Shown: positions 1,972 to 20,578, counted from the first letter of the stretch. The stretch is DNA of 64,000 bases from Candidatus Cloacimonadales bacterium (GCA_963674825.1 OY771587.1:224001-288000), one strand, 5' to 3'. The notes: a model not told the origin generated them from the sequence alone. Made by a program: numbers and translations.

Positions 1972-2074
1972 GCCCTACTCAATAATTAATTTTCATATCA
2001 TTTATCACTCTAAACCTCTTTTGGACTTCTTTTTGCATGTATTGTGAATGGTTTCACACATCAAAGGAGGAATA

Positions 2075-5000
2075 ATGAACACGAAACTTGTTATTACCGC
2101 AACCCTGATCCTGTTACTGCTTGCGGTAGCAGGGTTTGCACAGGACCAGGGCGGACCTGACACTTTTGGTTACACCTGGAAAAACAGTAATGTGGATGAT
2201 GGACCAGTTTACACTTGGATTGAGCCCAACACCACCAATGATGCAGTAGCCTTGTACACGGAATTTGATGACGACGGAAACACACCCATGATTCCGCTGA
2301 ACTTTAATTTCCCCTACTACGGAAATGTCTATAGTGAAATCTGTATTGGAACGAACGGTATCCTCGGTTTTTCAATCGAAAATATGAGCCATCGTTTCTC
2401 ACAGGATTTCCCGGATGCAACCGAACCGGACAACATTATTGCATGGCTTTACACAGACTTGAATCCTCTCTATACCTGGGCGGATTCGCACTGTTACTTC
2501 GAAAATATCGAATACAACGATCAAGATGCATTCATGATCACATTCGTCGATTACGCGGAGTATTACTATTCCGGAACGTCTCCCGAATACACGGTCGACG
2601 TACAAATCATCCTTTCAGAGAGCGGTGACATCATTTTCAATTATCAGCGGATTGGCACATCGGTAAGCCTTGCCGACGTTTCGATCGGTATGGAGAACGC
2701 AGACGCGACCGATGGTCTTTGCTATGTTTGTGACGATGCAGGATTTTCGATTCCGGATAACTTCGCGATCGAATTCTATCGTCCGGCTGCAACCACGATT
2801 GACCTCGTTGCAAGCTCCATTTCTGGCAATACTACCCCGTCTGTTGGTGCAGACACCGATTACACGATCAGCATCACCAATCAGGGTGTCGAGACACAGT
2901 CCACCTACACCGTTTACTTAAAAGATGCAAACGGCAATGAGCTTGGCTCCGCTGCGGGAACTGAAATTGCTCAGTATGAGTCTGCCGATATCGTCGTAAC
3001 CTGGGCTCCAGAGACTGAAGGCGCGATGGGAATTTACGGTGAAGTAGTCGTTACCGGTGACGAAAACGATACCAATAACACGACCAATGAGATGATCGTA
3101 ACCGTACAACCTCAGGGTATTACCGTTATCTCTCTTGGTACTGATCAAACCACCTCGAACTACATGCCGTTCAACTACTACTATCGCAACAGCCTTTCCG
3201 AGACTATCTTCTATCCGGAGGAGCTCGGGCTTGAAGGCGGTGGCTTGCTCACCGCCATTCAGTTCTACAATCATTTCCCGACTGATGAAACTGTGATCGA
3301 CACAGTCGTCAATATCTGGGTCGGCGAAACAGAACTTAACGATCTCGCTGATGGCTACATTCCATCGACGGACCTCACACAGGTCTTCTCGGGGCTGGTC
3401 AATTTTCCCGCTGGTGAGAACGATATTCTGATCACATTTGATGAGCCCTACGAGTACACTGGTGGCAATCTCGTTATTATGACCCACAGACCATGGGATC
3501 CGAGTTATTATGACTCGAACTGCCATTTCTACTATTCGGTTACTGAAGAATATCCGAATCGTACAGCTTCGAGCCCGGATGACACAACCGAATTCGATCC
3601 GGCAAACCCGCCGACCGATGACCTCACACTGTACGATCGTATCCCAAATATCAGCCTGTTCTTCGACAGCTCTGCTGCAACCGGCGTGACTGGTTATGTA
3701 TATGACGACCAGACTTCACCGATTTCTGGCGCAACTGTCACGATGACCCCGGGTGATGTTGAATTCACAACCGGACCGAGTGGCGCATTCTCGTTCCTCG
3801 GAATTGAACCGGGTACCTATAGCTTTGAAGCTGTGGCTGAAGGCTATGTCACCGATACCATCGAAGACGTTGTCGTTACCGAAGGCGAAACCTCTGAGAT
3901 CACCTTCTTCCTCGATCCTGTTATGACCGTGACCATCACTGTCACAACAAACGCAGGTTCACCTGAAGGCGCAGAACTCGTTTTCAGCAATGGCACCGAT
4001 ACCTACGAAGAAACTGTGCCTGAAGATGGAATCATCCACTTCTATGAAATCGCAAACGGAACCTACACCCTCGGTATCACGCTCGAAGGTTTCAGCTACT
4101 ACTATGATGACAGCGTCGCTATCGACGGCATGACCGACATCGATGTAGAGCTCACAGAAACGACCGAACCTCCGACCAATCTCGAATGCGATGATGAAGC
4201 CTACTTCACATGGGAAGCTCCAGCAGATCCGGACATGCTTGTTCGCAGCACATCTGCCCGTAAGCAGATCGTCCAGAACGTAACCCGCAACACCAAGGGA
4301 ACCCGTCAGGAGATACTGGATCGTCCGCTTCAGAACTATCGTGTGTACCTTGATGGCACATTCTTATCCACTACCAACAACCTGAACTACCAGTTCGAAA
4401 CAGAAGGCATGACCGTAGGCCAGACCTACACCGCCGGTGTTTCGGCTCAATATGTCAGCGGCGAATCTGAAATCGTCACCGTTGACTTCATCTATGGTTA
4501 CGAAGAACTCTACGCGCCAATCAACGTCGCTTGCGATTCGCTTGGTCACCTGACCTGGGAATCCGGTCAACCGGCTTCTCTTCTTCGCAAGAACGCTGGT
4601 TCGAAAGACGTTCAGACTATGGATCGTGACTTCATCCAGTATCGCGTATATCTGGACGACGAATATGTCGACTGGACACTTGCTACCGAATTCACATTTG
4701 ATGACCTCGAAGTGAACACCACTTACACGGCTGGCGTTTCCGCGTTCTATACCGCCGGTAACTCCGAAATCATCGAAGTCGAATTCATCTATATGCCTGC
4801 AAGTACCAGCCAGACTGATGTGACTCCTGCGACCACCGCGATCGTGGGTAACTTCCCGAATCCGTTCAATCCGGAAACAACCATTCAGTTCTCCACCTCC
4901 AAGCCGGGCCATACTACCCTCACTATCTTCAACGTGAAGGGTCAGAAGGTGAAAACGCTTGTTGACGCGAACCTGGATGCAAACGTTCATAGCGTTATCT

Positions 5001-5110
5001 GGAATGGACAGGATAACAGCGGCAAGAATGTCACCAGTGGTGTCTACTACGCCGTTCTAAAAGCAGCTGGCGAAAATCCCGCTGTTCAGAAAATGATCCT
5101 GCTGAAGTAA
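2075..5110 (+). CDS. Large secreted protein: GGPDxFGY N-domain, CARDB, carboxypeptidase-regulatory-like and FN3-like modules, C-terminal FlgD-Ig/T9SS-type sorting domain
   Basis: AAGGAGG RBS and signal peptide. GDENDTNN (CARDB), PISGATV...GTYSF (CarboxypepD_reg-like), C-terminal NFPNPFNPETTI...IFNVKGQKV...WNG...KMILLK. Confidence 0.85.
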   Translation: MNTKLVITATLILLLLAVAGFAQDQGGPDTFGYTWKNSNVDDGPVYTWIEPNTTNDAVALYTEFDDDGNTPMIPLNFNFPYYGNVYSEICIGTNGILGFSIENMSHRFSQDFPDATEPDNIIAWLYTDLNPLYTWADSHCYFENIEYNDQDAFMITFVDYAEYYYSGTSPEYTVDVQIILSESGDIIFNYQRIGTSVSLADVSIGMENADATDGLCYVCDDAGFSIPDNFAIEFYRPAATTIDLVASSISGNTTPSVGADTDYTISITNQGVETQSTYTVYLKDANGNELGSAAGTEIAQYESADIVVTWAPETEGAMGIYGEVVVTGDENDTNNTTNEMIVTVQPQGITVISLGTDQTTSNYMPFNYYYRNSLSETIFYPEELGLEGGGLLTAIQFYNHFPTDETVIDTVVNIWVGETELNDLADGYIPSTDLTQVFSGLVNFPAGENDILITFDEPYEYTGGNLVIMTHRPWDPSYYDSNCHFYYSVTEEYPNRTASSPDDTTEFDPANPPTDDLTLYDRIPNISLFFDSSAATGVTGYVYDDQTSPISGATVTMTPGDVEFTTGPSGAFSFLGIEPGTYSFEAVAEGYVTDTIEDVVVTEGETSEITFFLDPVMTVTITVTTNAGSPEGAELVFSNGTDTYEETVPEDGIIHFYEIANGTYTLGITLEGFSYYYDDSVAIDGMTDIDVELTETTEPPTNLECDDEAYFTWEAPADPDMLVRSTSARKQIVQNVTRNTKGTRQEILDRPLQNYRVYLDGTFLSTTNNLNYQFETEGMTVGQTYTAGVSAQYVSGESEIVTVDFIYGYEELYAPINVACDSLGHLTWESGQPASLLRKNAGSKDVQTMDRDFIQYRVYLDDEYVDWTLATEFTFDDLEVNTTYTAGVSAFYTAGNSEIIEVEFIYMPASTSQTDVTPATTAIVGNFPNPFNPETTIQFSTSKPGHTTLTIFNVKGQKVKTLVDANLDANVHSVIWNGQDNSGKNVTSGVYYAVLKAAGENPAVQKMILLK

Positions 5111-5384: not shown

Positions 5385-5415
5385 AAAAAAAGCCCAAGGT
5401 GAAAACCCTGGGCTT
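5385..5415 (-). terminator. Rho-independent terminator of the ferredoxin/beta-barrel operon
   Basis: Minus strand aagcccaggg-ttttca-ccttgggct-tttttt, 21 nt after the stop at 5437. Confidence 0.8.
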
Positions 5416-5436: not shown

Positions 5437-6603
5437 TCAGAATCCGTATTCGATATTCAGGCTATGGACGGTCGTATCGTCCACGTACCTGGCATCGATA
5501 ACAGAAAAACCATAATAAACGCGAGTCTTGTATCGTGGCAGATAATAGGACAAATCGACACCCGCTTTGTATTCGTTCATGCGATCGCTGCCAAAATAGC
5601 GGTGATAAGCACCGTAGAGACTGAACGGACCAAAGTAGTACATCATCCCCATTCGAGCGATGGTAACATTCTCATTAAAGTGAGTCTTGATCGCGACCAG
5701 AAAGCGGTCGATGTGGTTGTCCTTATCGAAATTGAGATTATGCTGCAAGATACCCTCGTAGAAACCATTTCCCCACGCTTTCTGACTGTCGTCCTCGTTA
5801 TACCAGTATTGCTCTGTCACGCGGTTGATCATCATCCAATCGTGGAAATATTTACTGGTAATGCGCAGATCAGCCTCGCCGTACCAGGGCAGGTTTTCAT
5901 AAGCATCGGTGTTCACGGCAGCGAGCTCGATCTGCACCGTATGCACGGCATCGACCTTCTTCAGCATGCGGTTACCGAAACGAGTCTCGGTGTAATCGTA
6001 GGTATCGATATCGTTCATGTCGTTGAAATGCTGGACTTCCACAAACGGCTTCACCCAGTCGGTGAATTTATAGGCGATGCTCGCCTTGCCGTAACCGTCG
6101 CTGTCGATCCAGTAGTCTTCATCCTTGACCATCTCGTTGGTTGCGGCGTCGTACCGGTAACGGTCGTAGTAATTAGCCAGAAACTTCGCTTCCAGCATCG
6201 TTTCGAGTCCATTCCAGGTTCCAAACCAATCCAGTCCGCCGGAATATGAACTCTTCAGCAGAAACTGATCATCTGCGCCGACGATACGGGTCTCAAAATC
6301 GTCTTTGCTGTAGTTTTGCAGGCCGAACCAGGTGGAAATGTAGTAGTTGTCCGAGTATAAAGCGAGTCTCAGCTTATCACGAAGATAGGTACGCTTGTAA
6401 TCGCGTTCGAGTTCGTCATCGCTGTTACTTACCTTGGCATAAAGTGTGTTGGTCAGTTCAAGGCCGTCGCCACCGATACGCTCGAAATCGTACAAGCGTT
6501 CCATGAAGCCTTCGCGGCTATCCGATTCGATGCTGAGTGTTGCTTGCCGTGCGTAAAGAAAACCAGCACTCAGGATTGCGATGAGGATAATCAGCTTTCT
6601 CAT
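5437..6603 (-). CDS. Predicted outer-membrane beta-barrel protein (388 aa)
   Basis: Signal peptide MRKLIILIAILSAGFLYA. Alternating aromatic-rich strands; ends SLNIEYGF. ATGA overlap with the upstream gene. Confidence 0.7.
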   Translation of the reverse strand: MRKLIILIAILSAGFLYARQATLSIESDSREGFMERLYDFERIGGDGLELTNTLYAKVSNSDDELERDYKRTYLRDKLRLALYSDNYYISTWFGLQNYSKDDFETRIVGADDQFLLKSSYSGGLDWFGTWNGLETMLEAKFLANYYDRYRYDAATNEMVKDEDYWIDSDGYGKASIAYKFTDWVKPFVEVQHFNDMNDIDTYDYTETRFGNRMLKKVDAVHTVQIELAAVNTDAYENLPWYGEADLRITSKYFHDWMMINRVTEQYWYNEDDSQKAWGNGFYEGILQHNLNFDKDNHIDRFLVAIKTHFNENVTIARMGMMYYFGPFSLYGAYHRYFGSDRMNEYKAGVDLSYYLPRYKTRVYYGFSVIDARYVDDTTVHSLNIEYGF

Positions 6604-6872
6604 TGAATCGCATCCTTCGGGCAGATGGACACGCATTCGCCGCACTGTTTGCATCGTGTCTGGATGATCATCGGTTTCTCGCCATCGTATAGAATCGCGT
6701 TGTATGGGCATACATCAACGCAGCGTCCACATGCGATACAGGCGTCTTCATCGATCTGATAGAACGCGGACGGTGAAGCTGAGGTTGTGATAGTATCTTT
6801 CTTGTCGCAGGCAACGATGAACGCGCCTAATACAGCGATCATGATGAGCGAATAGATCATGAACTTTCTCAT
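6600..6872 (-). CDS. Lipoprotein 2x[4Fe-4S] ferredoxin-like protein
   Basis: Lipobox FIVA-C(DKKD); CIACGRCVDVCP and CKQCGECVSICP; ATGA overlaps at both ends. Confidence 0.85.
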   Translation of the reverse strand: MRKFMIYSLIMIAVLGAFIVACDKKDTITTSASPSAFYQIDEDACIACGRCVDVCPYNAILYDGEKPMIIQTRCKQCGECVSICPKDAIQ

Positions 6873-7105
6873 TTGATCGCTCCGAAGGTGCAGGTTGTCG
6901 TGCAGAGCTTGCAATCGATGCACTTCGATTCGTCGATCATGGCTTTACCAGAGTGAACTTGAATCGCCTTGACCGGGCAGGCTTTGACGCAGTCACCGCA
7001 ACCCGTACAGTCAATGCGCGATACTTCCGGCTTGTTCTGGACCGCGGCGATCAGCATCGTAAACGCGACCAGCAGAATCATCGAGATGATAGCAATACGT
7101 TTCAT
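6869..7105 (-). CDS. Signal-peptide-bearing 2x[4Fe-4S] ferredoxin-like protein
   Basis: MKRIAIISMILLVAFTMLIAA leader; CTGCGDCVKACP and CIDCKLCTTTCT; AAAGGA RBS. Confidence 0.85.
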   Translation of the reverse strand: MKRIAIISMILLVAFTMLIAAVQNKPEVSRIDCTGCGDCVKACPVKAIQVHSGKAMIDESKCIDCKLCTTTCTFGAIK

Positions 7106-7121
7106 GAGCATCCTTTATCGG

Positions 7122-10100
7122 TTAATTATTATAAGCAACAACACCCGGATCGATAGCGTTATAAGGGCAATAGGGCTCGCAATCGCCACAACCGATGCAG
7201 AGATCAGGATTGATCAGCTTGTAAGGGCCTGCATCGTATATCGCATCCTGATCGCAACGGTTGATACAGTTATTGCAATCATGGCAGCGATTCGTGGTGA
7301 TCTTATAAACAATTTTGCCGGCAGGAGAATTGGAGCAGCCGCTCACATTTCCGATCTCGTCGTAAGTCTTGATGGCGAAGTAGACAAGTTCGCCTTCGTC
7401 CAGACCGTTGATGTTGCATGTCTGCGTGGTTCCCGCGGCAGCAGGATCGGGCGGACTGGAGAACAGCGTCGCGCTTGCCCAGTTTGCTTCCGTGATGGCG
7501 GAACTGGAATATCGGATCTCATAATGATCGGCAGTTCCGGTTGCGCCGTCATCCCCGGGAGCGGTCCAACTGATACGGATGGTGGACATATTGACGTAGG
7601 TTGTCGTCACGGTCAGGTTATCGATTGTCTCAGGCGCAGTCGTGTCGTCTCCCAACGTCAAATCAACAATGTTGGATATCTGGGACTGGTTGTCTGCGTC
7701 GTCAGTTGTCTTGATTCCGAAATAATATTGAACATCGGATGACAAGCCGGTCACCGTATATTGCTGCTGCGTTCCCGCAACTGCCGGTGTCGGTGGATCA
7801 GACAGAAGTGTCGCGCTTCCCCAGTTTGTTTCATCGATAATCGTCGTAGCATAGCGGATTTCATAGCTTTCCGCAGTGCCAGTGTTTCCATCATCGCCAG
7901 GCGCAGTCCATGAAAGGAGCGCATCGTTTCCAGATTGTATAGCTTCCAGATCGTCAATATCTGCCGGTGCGGTGGTATCGAATATTCCGGATTCTGCAAC
8001 GTTGGAGATCTGGGCAATATTACCGCCGTTGTCGGTAGCTTTTATCGCGAAATAGAGGGTGACATCCTGTTCCGGTGAAACGACCGTATATTGTTGCGTC
8101 GTTCCAGCTTCGAGCGGATCAGGCGGATTATCGAGCGTCTCGGCATCTTGCCAATTGCTTTCTGTAATCTGCTGCGTGGACATGCGGATCTCATACGATT
8201 CAGCGGTGCCGGTATCGGCATCGTCGCCTGGTGCGGTCCACTGAAGCGTGATATCCGAACCATCGACTGCTGCTTGAAGATCGGCGATCGCAGAAGGCGC
8301 AGTGTCGTCCACAATTTCCGCATTCGCAATATTGGAAAGAGAAGAAACGTTCGCAGCGTCGTCAAATGCCTTGATCGCGAAAAAATAACTTGTATTATCA
8401 TTGGCGCTAAGCCACTCGAATTGCTGCTGTGTTCCGGATTCTTCCGGTGATGGCAGGCCTGTGAGTAGTGTTGCGTTTGTCCAGTTATCGTCATTGATAG
8501 AACTTTCCGATACGCGGATTTCATAGTACGCCGCGGTTCCAGTATCCTCATCGTCACCCGTAGCGGTCCAGGTCAGCATTATCGACTGTCCCTGGGCGAC
8601 AGCGGCGAGGTCGTCGATCTGTGAAGGAGCAGTTGTGTCCGCGTTCGAGTTGGTCTCACCCTGTGCGATATTGGATAAGTTGCTTACGTTCTCCATCTCG
8701 TCCATAGCCTTGATGGCAAACCAGTACGCGGTTTCCGGTTCAAGTCCGGTTACGATTATACTTTCCTGAGTCCCTGCAGGTTGAGGCGTAATCATCTCGT
8801 CAATCGCGCCGATACTGTTCCAGTTGCTGTCGGTTATCGGTTCGGTATAGACTTTGATGATATAGCTTGAAGCTGTACCGGTATCGCCGTCATCGCCGGG
8901 AGCTGTCCAGCGGATTTGCGCCGTGGAAGCCGACGTGTTGGTAACCGTAAGATCATCGACCGCAGAAGGTGCGATGTGATCAGGGATGGCGGATGTTTCA
9001 GCCGATACGACGTTGGATAGCGTCGATTGGTTCTCGCTATTATCGATCGCCTTAACGGCAAAGTAGTAGGTTGTGCTGCTTGTAAGGCCGGTAACCATGA
9101 GCATTTCCGATACTCCAGCCATTTGTGGATCGAGATCGTTGTCGAATGTAGTTGCCTGGGCCCAGTTCTGTGGCGTGATTTCCGATGTGGAATAGCGCAC
9201 GATGTACGCATCTGCTGTACCTGTTGTTCCATCATCTCCCACGGCTGTCCAGCGAAGCGAGATCGATTCCATCTCGATAGTCTCGACTTGCAGCGTGGTA
9301 ATCTGCGCCGGAGCAGTTGTATCCGGGCTGAAAGACGCCTGTGCGTTGTTGGAGACACCTGATTCGTTATCACTGCTGTCGTAAGCACGGATGGCGAAGT
9401 AGTGAATCGCTTGATCAGGCATATCGGTAACCATGAAGCTCTCGGGTGTACCGGCTTCGGACGGGGTGATATCGCTTTCGACCAAAGTTGCTTGCAACCA
9501 TGTCGCATCAGTGATGGCACTGCTCGCATAGCGAATCTCGTAGCGATCTGCGGTGCCTTCGTCGCCATCATCGCCGGGAGCAGTCCAAAGCAGCGTGATC
9601 TGATCCTCGTCGGAAAGCGCTGTAAGGTCTTCGATCGCTGCCGGAGCTGTTTCATCCGCTGCTTCGTCGGAGATCATGACGGAAATAGTCTGCGACTTCG
9701 CATATTGACCGCAATCGTCGAACGCGTGCACTGCAACCTGAACCGTCTGCTGCGGTGTCAGGCCAGAGATATGCCAGGTTTCGGTGAGACCGGCAATCTT
9801 GGGTGGATTGGGAGCAAAATTGTTTTGGATCGCGGTTCCGCTGGCGGTTTTAAGTATGAGCTCATAGCGCCAGGCAATACCCGAAGTGGAGTCATCGCCG
9901 GTTGCAGTGAACTGGATATCCAGCGTTCCGATTGAATCGGAGATTGCGCACAAATCGGTTATTGGAGAAGGCGCGATGGTATCTTCTGTGTATGTAAACG
10001 CGTCGTATTGGCATTGGAAATCGGTAATACAGCGCATGCACTGGACGCATTTATCAGGATCGATGGTCGCTGTCCCGCGGACTTCATCAATGTAGATCGC

Positions 10101-10298
10101 ATTCTGCGGACAATGGAATTCTTCGATACACTCGTAGCAGGCAGTACAATTCGAGTATTCGATGCGGACATCGCCATCGTTACTTGCGTTCTTGCTTATA
10201 TCATCGGTGCAGTAAAAGAGGAGCAATGAAAGAAACGGTAGCAGGAACAGCAGTAAACGATGTTTACGGTTTGCATGCTGAGAAGTTTGTTTGCGCAT
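7122..10298 (-). CDS. Lipoprotein: ferredoxin domain - 8x fibronectin type III-like repeats - ferredoxin domain (1058 aa)
   Basis: Hydrophobic leader ending LLFY-C(TDD). N-terminal [14 protein letters not shown] and [13 protein letters not shown]. Eight DxxAP...WTAxGDD...Y.IR repeats. C-terminal [11 protein letters not shown] and [12 protein letters not shown]. Confidence 0.88.
7320..9983 (-). repeat. Eight tandem ~110-aa FN3-like coding repeats
   Basis: Repeat starts DTIAP, DETAP, DTTAP, DHIAP, DTTAP, DDTAP, DTTAP, DTTAP, each with (W/F)TA(P/T/V)GDD. Confidence 0.85.
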
Positions 10299-10301
10299 GA
10301 C

Positions 10302-10835
10302 CTACTCCCCGGCAACCTCAACCGCGATAGCATCAACCGGACAAGCCTGGTCGCAGATGCCGCACTGGATACACTTTCCCTGATCGATCTGCGCGATACC
10401 CTGCTTCATGCTGATAGCTCCTGTAGGGCATTTTTTCTTGCAGATCTTGCAGCCGATGCACTTGTCTTCCTGGACCGCGTAAAGCTTGGATGCCTCTTCT
10501 TCTTGCGCAGGTACCTGAACGGAAGAGGTCTTCTTTTCCACCGGAACCGAGGTACTGTCCGGCTTTGCAGCCGTGGTATCCGCAGCAGCGGTTTCTTCAA
10601 CAACCGAGATCGCCGCAACCGGGCATGCCTTCACGCAAAGTCCGCACTGGATGCACTTTTCACGATCGATTATGGCTTTGCCGTCAACCATCGTAATGGC
10701 CTTCACCGGACATTTCTGTACGCAGAGTGTGCAGCCGATGCACTTGTCGGGATCGACCTTGTGGTATGTTGCCGAAGTGGCCATGAGCATCACGACCATA
10801 AGCGTTGCCAGCAGCATAATAATATATTTCTTCAT
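10302..10835 (-). CDS. Signal-peptide-bearing polyferredoxin (four [4Fe-4S] motifs, two domains, flexible linker)
   Basis: AAGGAG RBS; MKKYIIMLLATLMVVMLMATSA leader. CIGCTLCVQKCP, CIQCGLCVKACP, CIGCKICKKKCP, CIQCGICDQACP. A/T/S/P/E-rich linker. Confidence 0.88.
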   Translation of the reverse strand: MKKYIIMLLATLMVVMLMATSATYHKVDPDKCIGCTLCVQKCPVKAITMVDGKAIIDREKCIQCGLCVKACPVAAISVVEETAAADTTAAKPDSTSVPVEKKTSSVQVPAQEEEASKLYAVQEDKCIGCKICKKKCPTGAISMKQGIAQIDQGKCIQCGICDQACPVDAIAVEVAGE

Positions 10836-15061: not shown

Positions 15062-16090
15062 ATGCGCACAACCATCACCATCGCTCTGTTATTGCTCGTT
15101 TCGGCTATCTTCGCTTATCCCACACTACAGGGAGAAGGAATAACCAAGTTCACCGAATATGCAGAAGATCATCTTGAACTTATTGATGAAATTACCCTCG
15201 ACGACAAGTCTGTCGTAGTGCGCCGCGCACCGGCAACGAAACATGCCCTTGGCGAAGTGACGATCGAGAAAAGGAAAAAAGAACGAGAATATGTATTGAC
15301 CAAATCTTCAGACCTCGGCGTTACCCTGCGGAAATCCGAGGATCATCAATATTGGGAATGGTATGACGCCAATAACAATCTGTTGAATCGCTGCCCGGCC
15401 AACCCATACATATCGAAAATTGTGCCTGTAAACACCAATGGCTACTGGCTCATGTTTGAAGAGCCAAAAGAAGATCCATACGATTTTATCGAAGAACAGT
15501 ACAATTACGATGGTCCCTTGATCTATGCTGCAGATTTCAGATGCAATGTCGAATCCAGCAACTTCCCCAGCCAGTCCGGTGTCGTTATTTTCGACCAGGA
15601 TGGCAATAAAATGACGCAGGTTGAGCTTGCAGGAGGAAGCATCACAGACATAGATATTAGTCCTCTTGGTAAATATTTCAGGGTTGCAGCCTGGCCAAAT
15701 ATTGTTATAATGACCATCAAAGGGAGTATTGTCTGGCAGAGCGATACAGAGGGCTCACGAACGATAACCTTTTCCCCAAATGAGGAGCTGGCGTTTCTTG
15801 GTGTTGGTCAATGTAAGGTACTGGATTTATCAAATGGGAAATATCTCGCCAATATCCCATGCTTTTTCGAACAAACGACCTCAGTTGCAATTAGCGACAA
15901 GGAGGCTGGGATTGTCGCAGTACCAGGATATAACGAAATTCTTGTTTTCGATATATGGGCCGGGAAACAGATCGCAAGATTCAGACAAAAAGGAACAAAT
16001 ATTCAGCTTTCAGGTGATGGACGGCTCCTATCATTCAGAGGGATAGGGAAAGTTGTTACATATCGGCTTGATGGAATAGATGGAGAATAA
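15062..16090 (+). CDS. Secreted hypothetical protein with beta-propeller-like C-half, paralog copy 1
   Basis: AGGAGG RBS, signal peptide; ISPLG/FSPNE/LSGDG blade-like motifs; N-half nearly identical to 19544..20578. Confidence 0.8.
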   Translation: MRTTITIALLLLVSAIFAYPTLQGEGITKFTEYAEDHLELIDEITLDDKSVVVRRAPATKHALGEVTIEKRKKEREYVLTKSSDLGVTLRKSEDHQYWEWYDANNNLLNRCPANPYISKIVPVNTNGYWLMFEEPKEDPYDFIEEQYNYDGPLIYAADFRCNVESSNFPSQSGVVIFDQDGNKMTQVELAGGSITDIDISPLGKYFRVAAWPNIVIMTIKGSIVWQSDTEGSRTITFSPNEELAFLGVGQCKVLDLSNGKYLANIPCFFEQTTSVAISDKEAGIVAVPGYNEILVFDIWAGKQIARFRQKGTNIQLSGDGRLLSFRGIGKVVTYRLDGIDGE

Positions 16091-16197: not shown

Positions 16198-16436
16198 CAA
16201 ACCGAAAAATATTGACACCTGAAATATACCATTTCCTCATCTGCACAAGAGGAGAATATCATGCGCACAACCACCACCATCGCTCTATTGCTGTTCGTTT
16301 CGGCTATCTTCGCTTATCCCACACTACGGGGAGACGGAATAACCAAGTTCACCGAATATGCAGAAGATCATCTTGAACTTATTGATGAAATTACCCTCGA
16401 CGACAAGTCTGTCGTAGTGCGCCGCGCACCGGCAAC
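16144..16436 (+). repeat. ~293-bp direct repeat, copy A (copy B at 19427..19719)
   Basis: Near-identical sequence at a constant offset of 3283 bp, covering the minigene tail, TTGACA, RBS and the paralog 5' end. Confidence 0.9.
16261..16436 (+). pseudogene. 5' fragment of paralog copy 2, interrupted
   Basis: Matches copies 1 and 3 up to RRAPAT, then runs into unrelated sequence (ORF stops at 16602). Confidence 0.8.
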
Positions 16437-16967
16437 TCAAGCAAGATTTCGGATGGGAGCAAATTCGCCTTTTACAGTACCACAGGCTGAAAAATCTGAA
16501 TGCGATTTTCTGGCTCGCTGTATGTTTTCTTTACTCGATGATTACGGATGTGCCCGGATTACAATCGATAATGATGTCGGCATTTATCGAACGAAAAAGT
16601 GACTGGAAGCGCCGTGGATTCGGTATCTACTACAGGTTAACCTACGTCATTTCGGAGTGTTTCCTATGGTTTGACTGGTACTGGATAAAGCCCGATAAAG
16701 GAAGGTGGAAAGAGCATTTACAGCTCAAGGTCAGGTTCGAATGAAAAAATGGGGGTATACCTGATTGTGTAAGAAAAAGATTGACAAACATCATGAGCTG
16801 GATTCATTTTAGAAGTTGTCTCATGGCAACGTTCCATGACAAAGCAGTTTTGCAAAATGGGGTGAAGTTGTGATTCGCAGCCTTCGATTCGATGAGGAAC
16901 AATTTGTTGGGATTAACACCAACCGTTGAAACGAAATAACTAATTTTCAATAAACAAGGAGAAAATT

Positions 16968-18224
16968 ATGAAGAAAATTACTTTGTTTTTGTTGTTTGTT
17001 CTTGCTGGTCTGTTGTTTGCCGAAGTTTCAATTCAGGAAATAGCTAACCTATTGAATCATGACCCATTTGATTTAACAGAAACATTGCTGGAAAGAGCTA
17101 AAAATGCAAGGGATCTTTCCCTTTCAGAAAAGCTTATTCAGACTTGGCAAGATGGCGCATGGGTAAATCAGGGAAGATATACGTATTCATATGACGAAAA
17201 TGGTTTTCTTGTGGTTGAACTGTTTCAAATATGGTCCGAAGAACAATGGATCAACGCAGGGAACACAAACTACTCCAACAATCCAGATGGACAGCCAGCG
17301 GAAATTATGTTACAGCAATGGGACGGCACCAATCAAGTTTGGGTTGATTATTTTTGGGCAACATATGAATATGATGAAAATGACAACTTGTTGCATGGGT
17401 TACTACAAGTAAACATGGGAGAAACCTGGGTCAATTGGGTTTACGCTACCAATACTTGGAGTAACGATAATCTCCTCATGGAAGTCTTTAAAGAAGAGTG
17501 GAGTAGTGAGTCCAATAATTGGGTAAATTATGAGATAAACACCTACACTTATGATAATGGGAATCTTATTTCATACATGGAACAAGAATGGCAGGACGGC
17601 GCCTGGCTAAATAAAGGGCTGGATACATACACAAACAATGCTGAAGGGTATAAAATCGAAATGATCTTCCAACAATGGCAAGAGTCAAATCGAAGCTGGG
17701 ATAATGCTTATCAAGAATTGTTTGAGTATGATGGGGATTGGAACATTACAACAGAATATCGAAATAACTGGAGTTGGAGCGGTCAAACCTGGACAGATTA
17801 TAGGGTGAAGTATAACACTTGGGAAGATGATGTCCTGGTAGAAACGCTGGAACGTGAGTGGAATGATTCACGTGAATGGATTGATATCAGCAAAACCAGC
17901 AATACCTATATGTTAGGTATTGATAGTGAAGAGGAAATGAATCCGATCAGCATTGTGTTGACTAATATGCCCAACCCATTCAATCCAACGACTACCATTA
18001 TGTTTTCACTGGTAGCCAACAGCAGAATTGAACTGGCGGTGTATAATATCAAGGGTCAGTTCGTGAAGATGCTTGCCCGTAATCCTTTCGACAAAGGAGA
18101 CCATCGTGTTACTTGGAATGGCGATGACGTAAATGGAAAACCGGTTAGCTCAGGTGTTTATTTCTTCAGGCTGAAGGTTGATGGTGTAACTGAAGTCGTG
18201 AGAAAAAGTCTGCTTCTGAAATGA
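16968..18224 (+). CDS. Secreted Trp/Tyr-rich repeat protein with C-terminal FlgD-Ig/T9SS-type sorting domain
   Basis: AAGGAG RBS, signal peptide. Repeats of Q.W....W.N.....Y.YD..GN. NMPNPFNPTTTI...YNIKGQ...KSLLLK. AT-rich. Confidence 0.85.
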   Translation: MKKITLFLLFVLAGLLFAEVSIQEIANLLNHDPFDLTETLLERAKNARDLSLSEKLIQTWQDGAWVNQGRYTYSYDENGFLVVELFQIWSEEQWINAGNTNYSNNPDGQPAEIMLQQWDGTNQVWVDYFWATYEYDENDNLLHGLLQVNMGETWVNWVYATNTWSNDNLLMEVFKEEWSSESNNWVNYEINTYTYDNGNLISYMEQEWQDGAWLNKGLDTYTNNAEGYKIEMIFQQWQESNRSWDNAYQELFEYDGDWNITTEYRNNWSWSGQTWTDYRVKYNTWEDDVLVETLEREWNDSREWIDISKTSNTYMLGIDSEEEMNPISIVLTNMPNPFNPTTTIMFSLVANSRIELAVYNIKGQFVKMLARNPFDKGDHRVTWNGDDVNGKPVSSGVYFFRLKVDGVTEVVRKSLLLK

Positions 18225-18583: not shown

Positions 18584-19373
18584 AGACCTCGGCGTAACCC
18601 TGCGGAAATCGGAAGATTTGCAATACTGGGAATGGTACGACGCCAATAACAATCTGTTAAATCGCTGCCCGATCAATCCGTACATCTCCGAAATCGTGCC
18701 TGTCAACACCAATGGGTACTGGCTCATGTTTGAAGAACCCAAAGAAGATCCATACGATTTTATCGAAGAACAGTACAATTACGATGATCCCTTGATATAT
18801 GCTGCAGATTTCCGTTACAACGTCGAGTCCAGCAATTTCGCCAGCCAGTCCGGGGTCGTTATCTACGACTCGTACGGAAACAAAATGACACAGGTTGAGC
18901 TCGGGTGTGGGAATGTCAGTTCTGTTAAATACAGTCCATCAGGCAATTACTTCATTGTTGCAGCACATCCCAAGAACTTCCTCATGAGTATCGACGGACA
19001 CATTATACGAAAGTTCCAGAAAAGTGGGGGCATTTCCATCGTGTTTTCCCCCAGCGAAGAACTGGCAGTGCTCGCCCCTCCTTTTCCGTATGTAATCGAT
19101 CTCGAGACGGGGGAAATACTTGCCGAGATTTTTTCTTCATACGGATCATCAACGGTTGCTATCAGTGACAGAGAGGCTGGAATTGTAGCGGTTAAAAACG
19201 GTGGTCGTGGAAGTGGTATCCAAATATTTGATATATGGAAGGGAAAACAAATTGCACATTTCAAGCGAGATGGCACATATATTCAGCTCTCAGGTGATGG
19301 ACGGCTTATCTCATTCAAATCAAAAGGAGATATAATGCGTTCATACCTACTTGATGGCATAAGAGGAGAATAA
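18584..19373 (+). pseudogene. 3' fragment of paralog copy 2
   Basis: Homology to copy 1 resumes at agacctcggcg (DLGVTLRKSED) and is open to the stop at 19373; no signal peptide or RBS. Confidence 0.78.
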
Positions 19374-19480: not shown

Positions 19481-19719
19481 CAAACCGAAAAATATTGACA
19501 CCTGAAATATACCATTTCCTCATCTGCACAAGAGGAGAATATCATGCGCACAACCACCACCATCGCTCTGTTTTTGCTCGTTTCCGCCATCTTCGCTTAT
19601 CCCACACTACGGGGAGAAGGAACAACCAAGTTCACCGAATATGCAGAAGATCATCTTGAACTTATTGATGAAATTACCCTCGACGACAAGTCTGTCGTAG
19701 TGCGCCGCGCACCGGCAAC
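19427..19719 (+). repeat. ~293-bp direct repeat, copy B
   Basis: Matches 16144..16436. Confidence 0.9.
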
Positions 19720-20578
19720 GAAACATGCCCTTGGCGAAGTGACGATCGAGAAAAGGAAAAAAGAACGAGAATATGTATTGACCAAATCTTCAGACCTCGG
19801 CGTTACCCTGCGGAAATCCGAGGATCATCAATATTGGGAATGGTATGACGCCAATAACAATCTGTTGAATCGCTGCCCGGCCAACCCATACATATCTGAA
19901 ATTGTGGACGTCAACACCAATGGCTACTGGCTCATGTTTGAAGAGCTAAAAGAAGATCCATACGATTTTATCGAAGAACAGTACGATTTCGATGGTCCCT
20001 TGATATATGCTGCAGATTTCAGATACAATGTCGAATCCAGCAACTTCCCCAGCCAGTCCGGGGTCGTTATTTACGACCAGAATGGCAATAAAATGACGCA
20101 GGTTGACCTTGAGTGTGGAGATGTAAGTTATATTGAAATGAGTCCTTCTGGAAACTACTTCATTGTTGCAGCACACCCCAAGACCTTCCTTATGAGTATA
20201 GATGGACTCATTAAAAGAGAATTCATGAAAAGCGGAGGAGTTTATATCAGTTTCTCTCCCAGCGAAGATCTGGCAGTACTTGGTCCTCCCCTGCCGTATG
20301 TAATCGATCTTGAGACAGGCGAAATACTTGCCAAGATTCATGGCACTTACGATTCATCAACGATTGCGATCAGCGACAAAGATGCTGGAATTGTTGCAGT
20401 GAGAGGAAATATCGGAATTCTTGTTTTCGATATATGGGCTGAGAAACAGATCGCAAGATTCAGACAAAACGGAACGAATATTCAACTCTCAGGCGATGGG
20501 CGGCTCCTATCATTCAGAGGGATAGGGAAAGTTGTTACATATCGGCTTGATGGAATAGATGGAGAGCAGTCAGAGTAA
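19544..20578 (+). CDS. Secreted hypothetical protein, paralog copy 3
   Basis: AGGAG RBS, signal peptide; homologous to 15062..16090. Confidence 0.8.
   Translation: MRTTTTIALFLLVSAIFAYPTLRGEGTTKFTEYAEDHLELIDEITLDDKSVVVRRAPATKHALGEVTIEKRKKEREYVLTKSSDLGVTLRKSEDHQYWEWYDANNNLLNRCPANPYISEIVDVNTNGYWLMFEELKEDPYDFIEEQYDFDGPLIYAADFRYNVESSNFPSQSGVVIYDQNGNKMTQVDLECGDVSYIEMSPSGNYFIVAAHPKTFLMSIDGLIKREFMKSGGVYISFSPSEDLAVLGPPLPYVIDLETGEILAKIHGTYDSSTIAISDKDAGIVAVRGNIGILVFDIWAEKQIARFRQNGTNIQLSGDGRLLSFRGIGKVVTYRLDGIDGEQSE

Follow-up and report, generated by a model that had tools for sequence, protein, structure and literature searches.

To our knowledge, the electron conduits that cross bacterial outer membranes are haem systems, and bacterial extracytoplasmic iron-sulfur proteins are held to be loaded inside the cell and exported folded by Tat. 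NapG, NrfC and MauM are such Tat-exported periplasmic ferredoxins, their extracytoplasmic 4Fe-4S domains being paired with a NapH-like membrane protein. The Pcc conduit of Geobacter (OmbB-OmaB-OmcB) and MtrCAB of Shewanella are each encoded by a single operon, in which the gene for a barrel is accompanied by those for a periplasmic redox protein and a redox lipoprotein, with Pcc porins of 18-22 predicted strands in the sections of PMC4245776 covered here. PgcA of Geobacter sulfurreducens, as described in parts of PMC10570954, is a haem-tethered string whose extracellular redox domains are separated by non-redox stretches and which exchanges electrons within and between molecules. Lastly, the sections of PMC8238504 consulted present PF12801 proteins as membrane electron feeds for extracytosolic systems, with NapH-like (PF12801) and DsbD modules both feeding extracytosolic redox partners that are flavinylated or thioredoxin-like.

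The window analysed here, a 64,000-nucleotide stretch from a Candidatus Cloacimonadales bacterium (GCA_963674825.1 OY771587.1:224001-288000), holds an operon (Table 1) that resembles each of these systems and differs from each. Like Pcc and MtrCAB it encodes a predicted barrel (E) together with candidate periplasmic and lipoprotein redox proteins, but it has no haem c motif or maturation gene. Its candidate redox centres lie in 2[4Fe-4S]-type domains, no family match links E with MtrB itself, and the outer head is apparently presented either on a stalk of FN3 repeats or by a type IX tail. Read as a conduit, the operon would work like a porin-cytochrome system, but in our analysis it falls outside that class on account of haem. 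Protein B recalls PgcA in the separation of its redox domains, although folded FN3 repeats and ferredoxin domains stand where PgcA has low-complexity stretches and haems. Two associated membrane proteins, N (PF12801) and F (DsbD_2), are of the NapH-like and DsbD types, but the partners here are Sec-tagged ferredoxins and a barrel, and F belongs to PF13386 whereas the family treated in the covered sections of PMC8238504 is PF02683. The reading that we favour, and to which we give about an even chance, is that B would be the tethered terminal shuttle of a predicted haem-free porin-ferredoxin conduit across the outer membrane. We found no description of this operon in the open-access papers and main-text passages that our search covered. 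Two papers on Cloacimonadota have no occurrence in their main texts of cytochrome, secretion or quinone (PMC12590816) or of fibronectin or outer membrane (PMC8542988), and the consulted sections of PMC8238504 do not describe the operon.

Table 1. Features of the operon, in window coordinates
Feature	Position	Strand	Description
Gene A	10302..10835	(-)	177 aa; Sec-type signal peptide, two 2[4Fe-4S]-type domains, low-complexity linker
Gene B	7122..10298	(-)	1058 aa; predicted lipoprotein, ferredoxin - 8 FN3 - ferredoxin
B leader, aa 1-30	10209..10298	(-)	ends LLFY-C, then TDD; twin-arginine motif absent
B proximal ferredoxin-type domain	9999..10169	(-)	Cx2Cx2Cx5C twice; two-residue insertion vs RnfB
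B stalk	7311..9983	(-)	eight WTAPGDD-type FN3 repeats, aa 106-996
B distal ferredoxin-type domain	7125..7310	(-)	canonical spacing; groups with ferredoxin of sorting-tail protein G
Gene C	6869..7105	(-)	78 aa; Sec-type signal peptide and one 2[4Fe-4S]-type domain; core gene; alternative ATG 7111
Gene D	6600..6872	(-)	90 aa; predicted lipoprotein (IVA-C-DKK), one 2[4Fe-4S]-type domain; core gene
Gene E	5437..6603	(-)	388 aa; signal peptide and predicted plugless 20-strand beta-barrel ending in Phe; core gene
Terminator-like hairpin	5390..5415	(-)	11 pairs and T tail, directly after E

Architecture and distribution of protein B

A preliminary description had ascribed to B the unusual architecture of a ferredoxin at either end of eight FN3-like repeats, and this is real: it is borne out by the open reading frame, by the Cys motifs and by Pfam matches to fn3 (PF00041; E 1.6e-41, 140.8 bits) and Fer4 (E 6.6e-14). 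The motif spacings given there can be read directly from the Cys positions, with Cys51/54/57/63 and 84/87/90/96 forming Cx2Cx2Cx5C twice in the proximal domain and Cys1005/1008/1011/1015 and 1034/1037/1040/1044 forming Cx2Cx2Cx3C twice in the distal one. The latter pair, which defines the 2[4Fe-4S] motif, is also found in A, C and D, and the x5 spacing of the proximal domain aligns with RnfB (9eri_B) as a two-residue insertion. The acidic WTAPGDD-type repeats are likewise present as claimed, with W-T-A-[PTV]-G-D-D in seven and FTATGDD in repeat 1, and repeats 1-7 carry a net charge of -8 to -20 each. Repeats 2-8 are mutually 41-53% identical, repeat 1 only 26-32%. A model of aa 30-325 built from 24 sequences (pTM 0.49) predicts two beta-sandwiches at a pLDDT of about 85-95, which together with the PF00041 match points to an FN3 fold, while the proximal ferredoxin is poorly modelled (pLDDT 33-64). 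Animal CLCA1 has an FN3 region near its C-terminus that the repeats (7311..9983) also match (TIGR00868, model positions 738-863, E 1.5e-72, 6 stretches), but at 244.7 bits against a cut-off of 900.85, the FN3 module alone being common to both. The leader is hydrophobic and ends in LLFYC30; B is likely lipid-anchored, with an atypical lipobox (LFY-C).

Misassembly or chance fusion was ruled out as an origin of B, since three congeneric genomes have versions of 1046-1049 aa with eight repeats. When proteins of 581-1852 aa were searched with aa 25-215 of B, 23 further homologs came up, and the three of these that are named belong to the Cloacimonadota. Homologs lacking the ferredoxin ends would have counted against the design; instead all 23 keep both, of which only the C-terminal ferredoxin's retention is independent, the N-terminal one being the search query. 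Comparing repeat number among homologs, as the preliminary description had proposed, gives a range of 4 to 14: four repeats in 15 proteins, five in 3, six in 2, eight in 2 and 14 in 1. In a genome survey covering 232 genomes of this phylum, the N-terminal profile of B matches 53, with one copy each. The 25 genome copies of B have 2-14 repeats; the copy in G005 is short and without a distal domain, and that in G059 fails the ferredoxin pattern at both ends. A stop interrupts B near its N-terminus in G219 (L118), and in G212 (L149) B is a 58-aa stub in a rearranged locus. A metagenome scan with the B N-terminus returned 68 loci, 3 of which match most of the query and 64 of which are short ferredoxin matches; the remaining one (L048) is weak and unrelated.

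A conserved core of ferredoxins and a predicted barrel

The gene order in the window is A, B, C, D, E, followed by the hairpin; such sites are no more frequent than in shuffles, and the argument for this one is its position after E. A promoter scan was uninformative (9 sites vs 7.1 expected). To compare loci we read 49: the window, 28 picked by hits to E and 20 from the 93 of 232 phylum genomes in which F is present. For these 20, genomes in which we had failed to find B were mostly preferred, and the sample is therefore not random. C, D and E stand in this order in 41 of the 43 loci with an E hit (39 by automatic listing, plus G002 and G003, which were set by hand as their overlapping frames had been mis-sorted), and F, a membrane protein with four invariant Cys, adjoins E in 36 of the 43. 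The operon core in Cloacimonadota is C, D and E, usually with F, and B is optional. N, with an invariant Cys and His, lies within the locus in 19/49; in the host genome (G000) N (C1:3058124-3058906) and F (C1:3413436-3414800) are both unlinked from the operon. The preliminary description had recognised the small ferredoxins A and C, which stand, and was silent on the core genes D (6600..6872) and E (5437..6603) and on the absence of Tat.

Conservation extends to the putative cluster ligands. Neither D nor the proximal domain of B shows any variation at its eight Cys, and the spacing is canonical in 27/27 C and 27/27 D sequences. An Asp in place of the second Cys (CxxDxxC), which also occurs in true [4Fe-4S] ferredoxins, is seen in A of L129 and L131 and in L137:3418-3975, L138:2915-3166 and L140:8590-8838 (A, G and D homologs). 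In many A homologs the first ferredoxin is replaced by a domain of ~90 aa without a Pfam match (L017:323-865, L124:6513-7091, L127:1539-2081), which we take to resemble an OB-fold. Operon neighbours vary within the genus, one congeneric genome having an open reading frame, presumably transposase-like, directly upstream of A (L011:1834-3357).

The small ferredoxins had also been called Lys-rich and basic. They are mildly basic at most, and the statement was exaggerated: net charge from residue 23 is -1 for A, +2 for C and -3 for D. It had been suggested as one possibility that basic small ferredoxins line the acidic repeats of B and form a continuous wire, a docking arrangement that we consider highly improbable. 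The repeats are indeed acidic, and the second domain of A and that of C average +2.6 and +1.4, compared with -2.6 in 8 other ferredoxin-type domains of the host genome. However, the first domain of A averages +0.6 and D -1.7, so that the small domains are near neutral (+2.6 to -1.7), and the acidity of the repeats (-0.129 per residue) is ordinary for this genome, whose sorting-tail proteins, 132 in this comparison, have a median of -0.120 (quartiles -0.134 and -0.102). The repeats of the homolog in G016 reach only -0.051 per residue, C and D persist where the stalk is absent, and C has no surface tag.

E has no match in Pfam or NCBIfam. Its AF2 model (370 aa, pLDDT 89.7, pTM 0.77) has 20 strands and no plug, a predicted strand number that lies within the 18-22 of Pcc porins and the 18-28 of Pcc and Mtr barrels. 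Fold matches are led by TonB receptors (Z 18.7, rmsd 3.9, 324 aligned), below which MtrB ranks (Z 14.0, rmsd 5.5, 337 aligned); the best of them, metal and cobalamin receptors at 6-11% identity, are generic and reflect barrel size, and the absence of a Slam or Pcc porin among the 50 matches listed excludes nothing. The E profile matches 108 representatives; we looked up 10 of them, and all four clusters that carry a taxon name belong to Cloacimonadota. Among 51 distant homologs, one passes the MtrB_PioB (PF11854) cut-off (26 bits vs 23), another two match barrel families below threshold, and the remaining 48 give no hit. Two identities for E were rejected. A TonB-dependent receptor would have a 22-strand barrel with a plug, and E has 20 strands and none. 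The Slam/SlipAM translocon (PF04575) is a 14-strand barrel with a TPR domain, whereas E has no PF04575 or other Pfam match, 20 strands and no helical domain, and is kept where B is absent; an Atlas feature likeness to Slam/SlipAM of 0.95, at low recognition, is weak.

The likeness of E to metal receptors bears on an unlikely alternative, reductive acquisition of metal or iron-sulfur, in which the exported Cys domains would capture Fe, sulfide or another metal, E would import it and N and F would give reductant. The families of N and F and the invariant Cys of the latter are in keeping with this, and CcoG, which acts in copper delivery and has ferredoxin-like motifs, is a cupric reductase according to the sections of PMC8267372 consulted. 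Against it, E has no plug domain, its receptor matches are those that reflect barrel size, and in the loci inspected by eye we recognised no TonB, ABC or metal-regulator gene that constantly accompanies the operon. Moreover, the ferredoxins fall into four to six classes, distinct and each conserved in its own right, and such a set fits a relay better than a sponge. By their sequences, these classes carry Sec, lipoprotein or type IX tags.

Probable surface display in the B slot

Within the operon B behaves as an exchangeable module, probably one for display. The 49 loci hold B in 29, B' (a short lipoprotein with one C-terminal ferredoxin) in 4 and G in 7, two of these with B'; 5 have the core alone, and 6 either have no core or are themselves fragments. 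G consists of a leader, Fer4 and Por_Secre_tail, the tail match being above its cut-off (Pfam, copy L126:8421-8960), and it occupies the slot of B in its 7 loci, whereas none of the 29 loci that hold B contains it. Neither a word-index search (1 protein at 96% identity among 12 candidates) nor the Atlas (sorting-tail clusters only, feature scores under 0.9) shows the range of G. In a quick tree of 151 domains over 57 columns, the distal domain of B and the ferredoxins of G form one group with an SH-aLRT of 87, which is below the starred level, and the mean score of B distal domains against G is 119, compared with 72 against B's own proximal domain. As the slot of B, where B is absent, often holds a type IX-tail ferredoxin that groups with the distal domain, this domain is probably a surface-displayed head, and the same ferredoxin head may be displayed on the surface in two ways, by FN3 stalk or by type IX tail.

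The host genome also has a G-type gene outside the window (C1:683119-683901, (-)), with a Sec-type leader, a ferredoxin and a type IX-like sorting tail. PorV is present in this genome (two matches), and a crude sorting-tail pattern finds 136 open reading frames. Within the window, type IX-like C-terminal tails occur on the proteins at 2048..5110 and 16968..18224 (+). The window further contains tandem paralogous secreted-looking open reading frames of about 340 aa (15062..16090, 16261..16602, 18618..19373 and 19544..20578, (+)), which share near-identical stretches and two of which appear truncated or split.

The residues that follow the lipidation Cys lend themselves to a further comparison, one that crosses phyla, the lipoprotein surface signal being established in Bacteroidetes only. 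B begins C-TDD, showing the polar +2, Asp at +3/+4 and net negative charge of the Bacteroidetes export signal, and S-D-D is given as a surface signal of Bacteroides and Flavobacterium lipoproteins in the sections of PMC5080379 covered. Residues +2 to +4 have a net negative charge in 20 of 25 sequences of B and 0 of 27 of D. On the other side, a crude pattern finds [ST]D[DES] in only 2 of 111 lipoprotein-like open reading frames of the genome. B is likely, from its sequence features, to be a surface lipoprotein. A stalk presenting a redox head past the cell surface, one of the roles first suggested for B, gains ground from these acidic residues and from the grouping of the distal domain with sorting-tail ferredoxins. 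A swinging arm, another of those roles, is a possible one as well.

An FN3 domain is about 3.5-4 nm long, and the head of B would stand ~30 nm from the proximal end if the stalk were extended. At this length per domain, eight repeats would also roughly equal the width of the periplasm, and the surface sorting of B is argued from another phylum only, both of which would suit a periplasmic B whose stalk carries the redox head between inner and outer membrane. We hold this to be very unlikely: full-length forms vary from 4 to 14 repeats, the head groups as described above, and the soluble A and C already span the periplasm.

Export, putative cluster loading and a candidate haem-free conduit

The host genome, a single contig that is 99.57% complete, was searched for the machinery that would load and export these domains. 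A simple twin-arginine pattern matches none of the 102 sequences of A, B, C and D examined, and a search of G000 in which 11 of 14 controls were positive found no TatC; in both respects the operon differs from NapG, NrfC and MauM. Across the phylum, 9 of 232 genomes have TatC, and among the 53 that carry B only 2 do. No match to cytochrome c assembly (Cytochrom_C_asm) and no multihaem protein were found in G000, DnaJ alone having two or more CxxCH. SufBD was not found in this genome either, and the one NifU, beside a NifS-like gene, is cytoplasmic-looking, neither gene having a leader. With no TatC found and no twin-arginine leader, clusters, if there are any, would be loaded after Sec export, for which we know of no route. 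A separate full DsbD is present, so that F looks dedicated. Another iron-sulfur protein of the genome, presumably DUF362-like, has an N-terminal hydrophobic stretch and is possibly exported (C1:2536805-2537980, (-)). The single UbiA-family gene (C1:2599309-2600967) follows a polyprenyl synthase; its role may lie in the making of archaeal-type ether lipids, which are associated with this phylum, and not in that of quinones. From this context, quinones may be missing from G000.

These observations would also suit exported ferredoxin-fold domains that are free of clusters and instead hold Zn or undergo thiol cycling, as parts of a system fed by F that maintains or senses the redox state of the envelope. 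The lack of Tat and SufBD, the cytoplasmic-looking NifS/NifU pair, the thiol-relay type of F and the non-canonical, poorly modelled proximal motif of B speak for such a role. We nonetheless think it quite improbable, given that the Cys of D and proximal B are invariant and the spacing of C and D canonical throughout, that a full DsbD exists separately, and that a dedicated barrel E would be left unexplained.

In the conduit that we favour, apo-proteins would cross unfolded by Sec, with F keeping their cysteines reduced, and clusters would be loaded outside the cytoplasm. Electrons from a cytoplasmic reductant would pass through N to periplasmic A and C, from these to the lipoprotein D at or in the barrel E, crossing the outer membrane, and from D to the proximal domain of B. 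Transfer to the distal domain would be by bending of the stalk or by hopping between neighbouring molecules, making B a tethered shuttle and not a wire; the FN3 stalk would keep the iron-sulfur head at a distance from the cell, and from this final station electrons could reach sulfur, a mineral, a partner cell or some other acceptor outside. In a fermenter, electrons would be more likely to flow outward than inward. By our own estimate, one two-cluster domain is short for crossing the membrane, and several would have to stack. The observed side of the conduit is the gene order, the domain content, the Sec-type leaders and the finding of no TatC or cytochrome c assembly gene. Against it stand the linkage of N in just 19 of 49 loci, the unlinked N and F of the host genome, and the dispensability of B, 5 loci keeping the core without B, B' or G. 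More tentatively, and as a proposition that we think somewhat less likely than not, Cloacimonadota may build a complete haem-free conduit of Sec-exported iron-sulfur domains loaded in the periplasm or at the surface, with the terminal ferredoxin on an FN3 stalk of tunable length or displayed via type IX, for exchanging electrons with minerals, sulfur or syntrophs.

B would be the most accessible test object, being large, probably surface-exposed and equipped with a separable 60-residue head. If the exported domains hold clusters, then an undescribed extracytoplasmic iron-sulfur maturation exists. If they conduct, fermenters without cytochromes would have a route, open to testing, by which electrons could pass to the outside or to other species and, if this is true, gene surveys that search for cytochromes would miss such a conduit.
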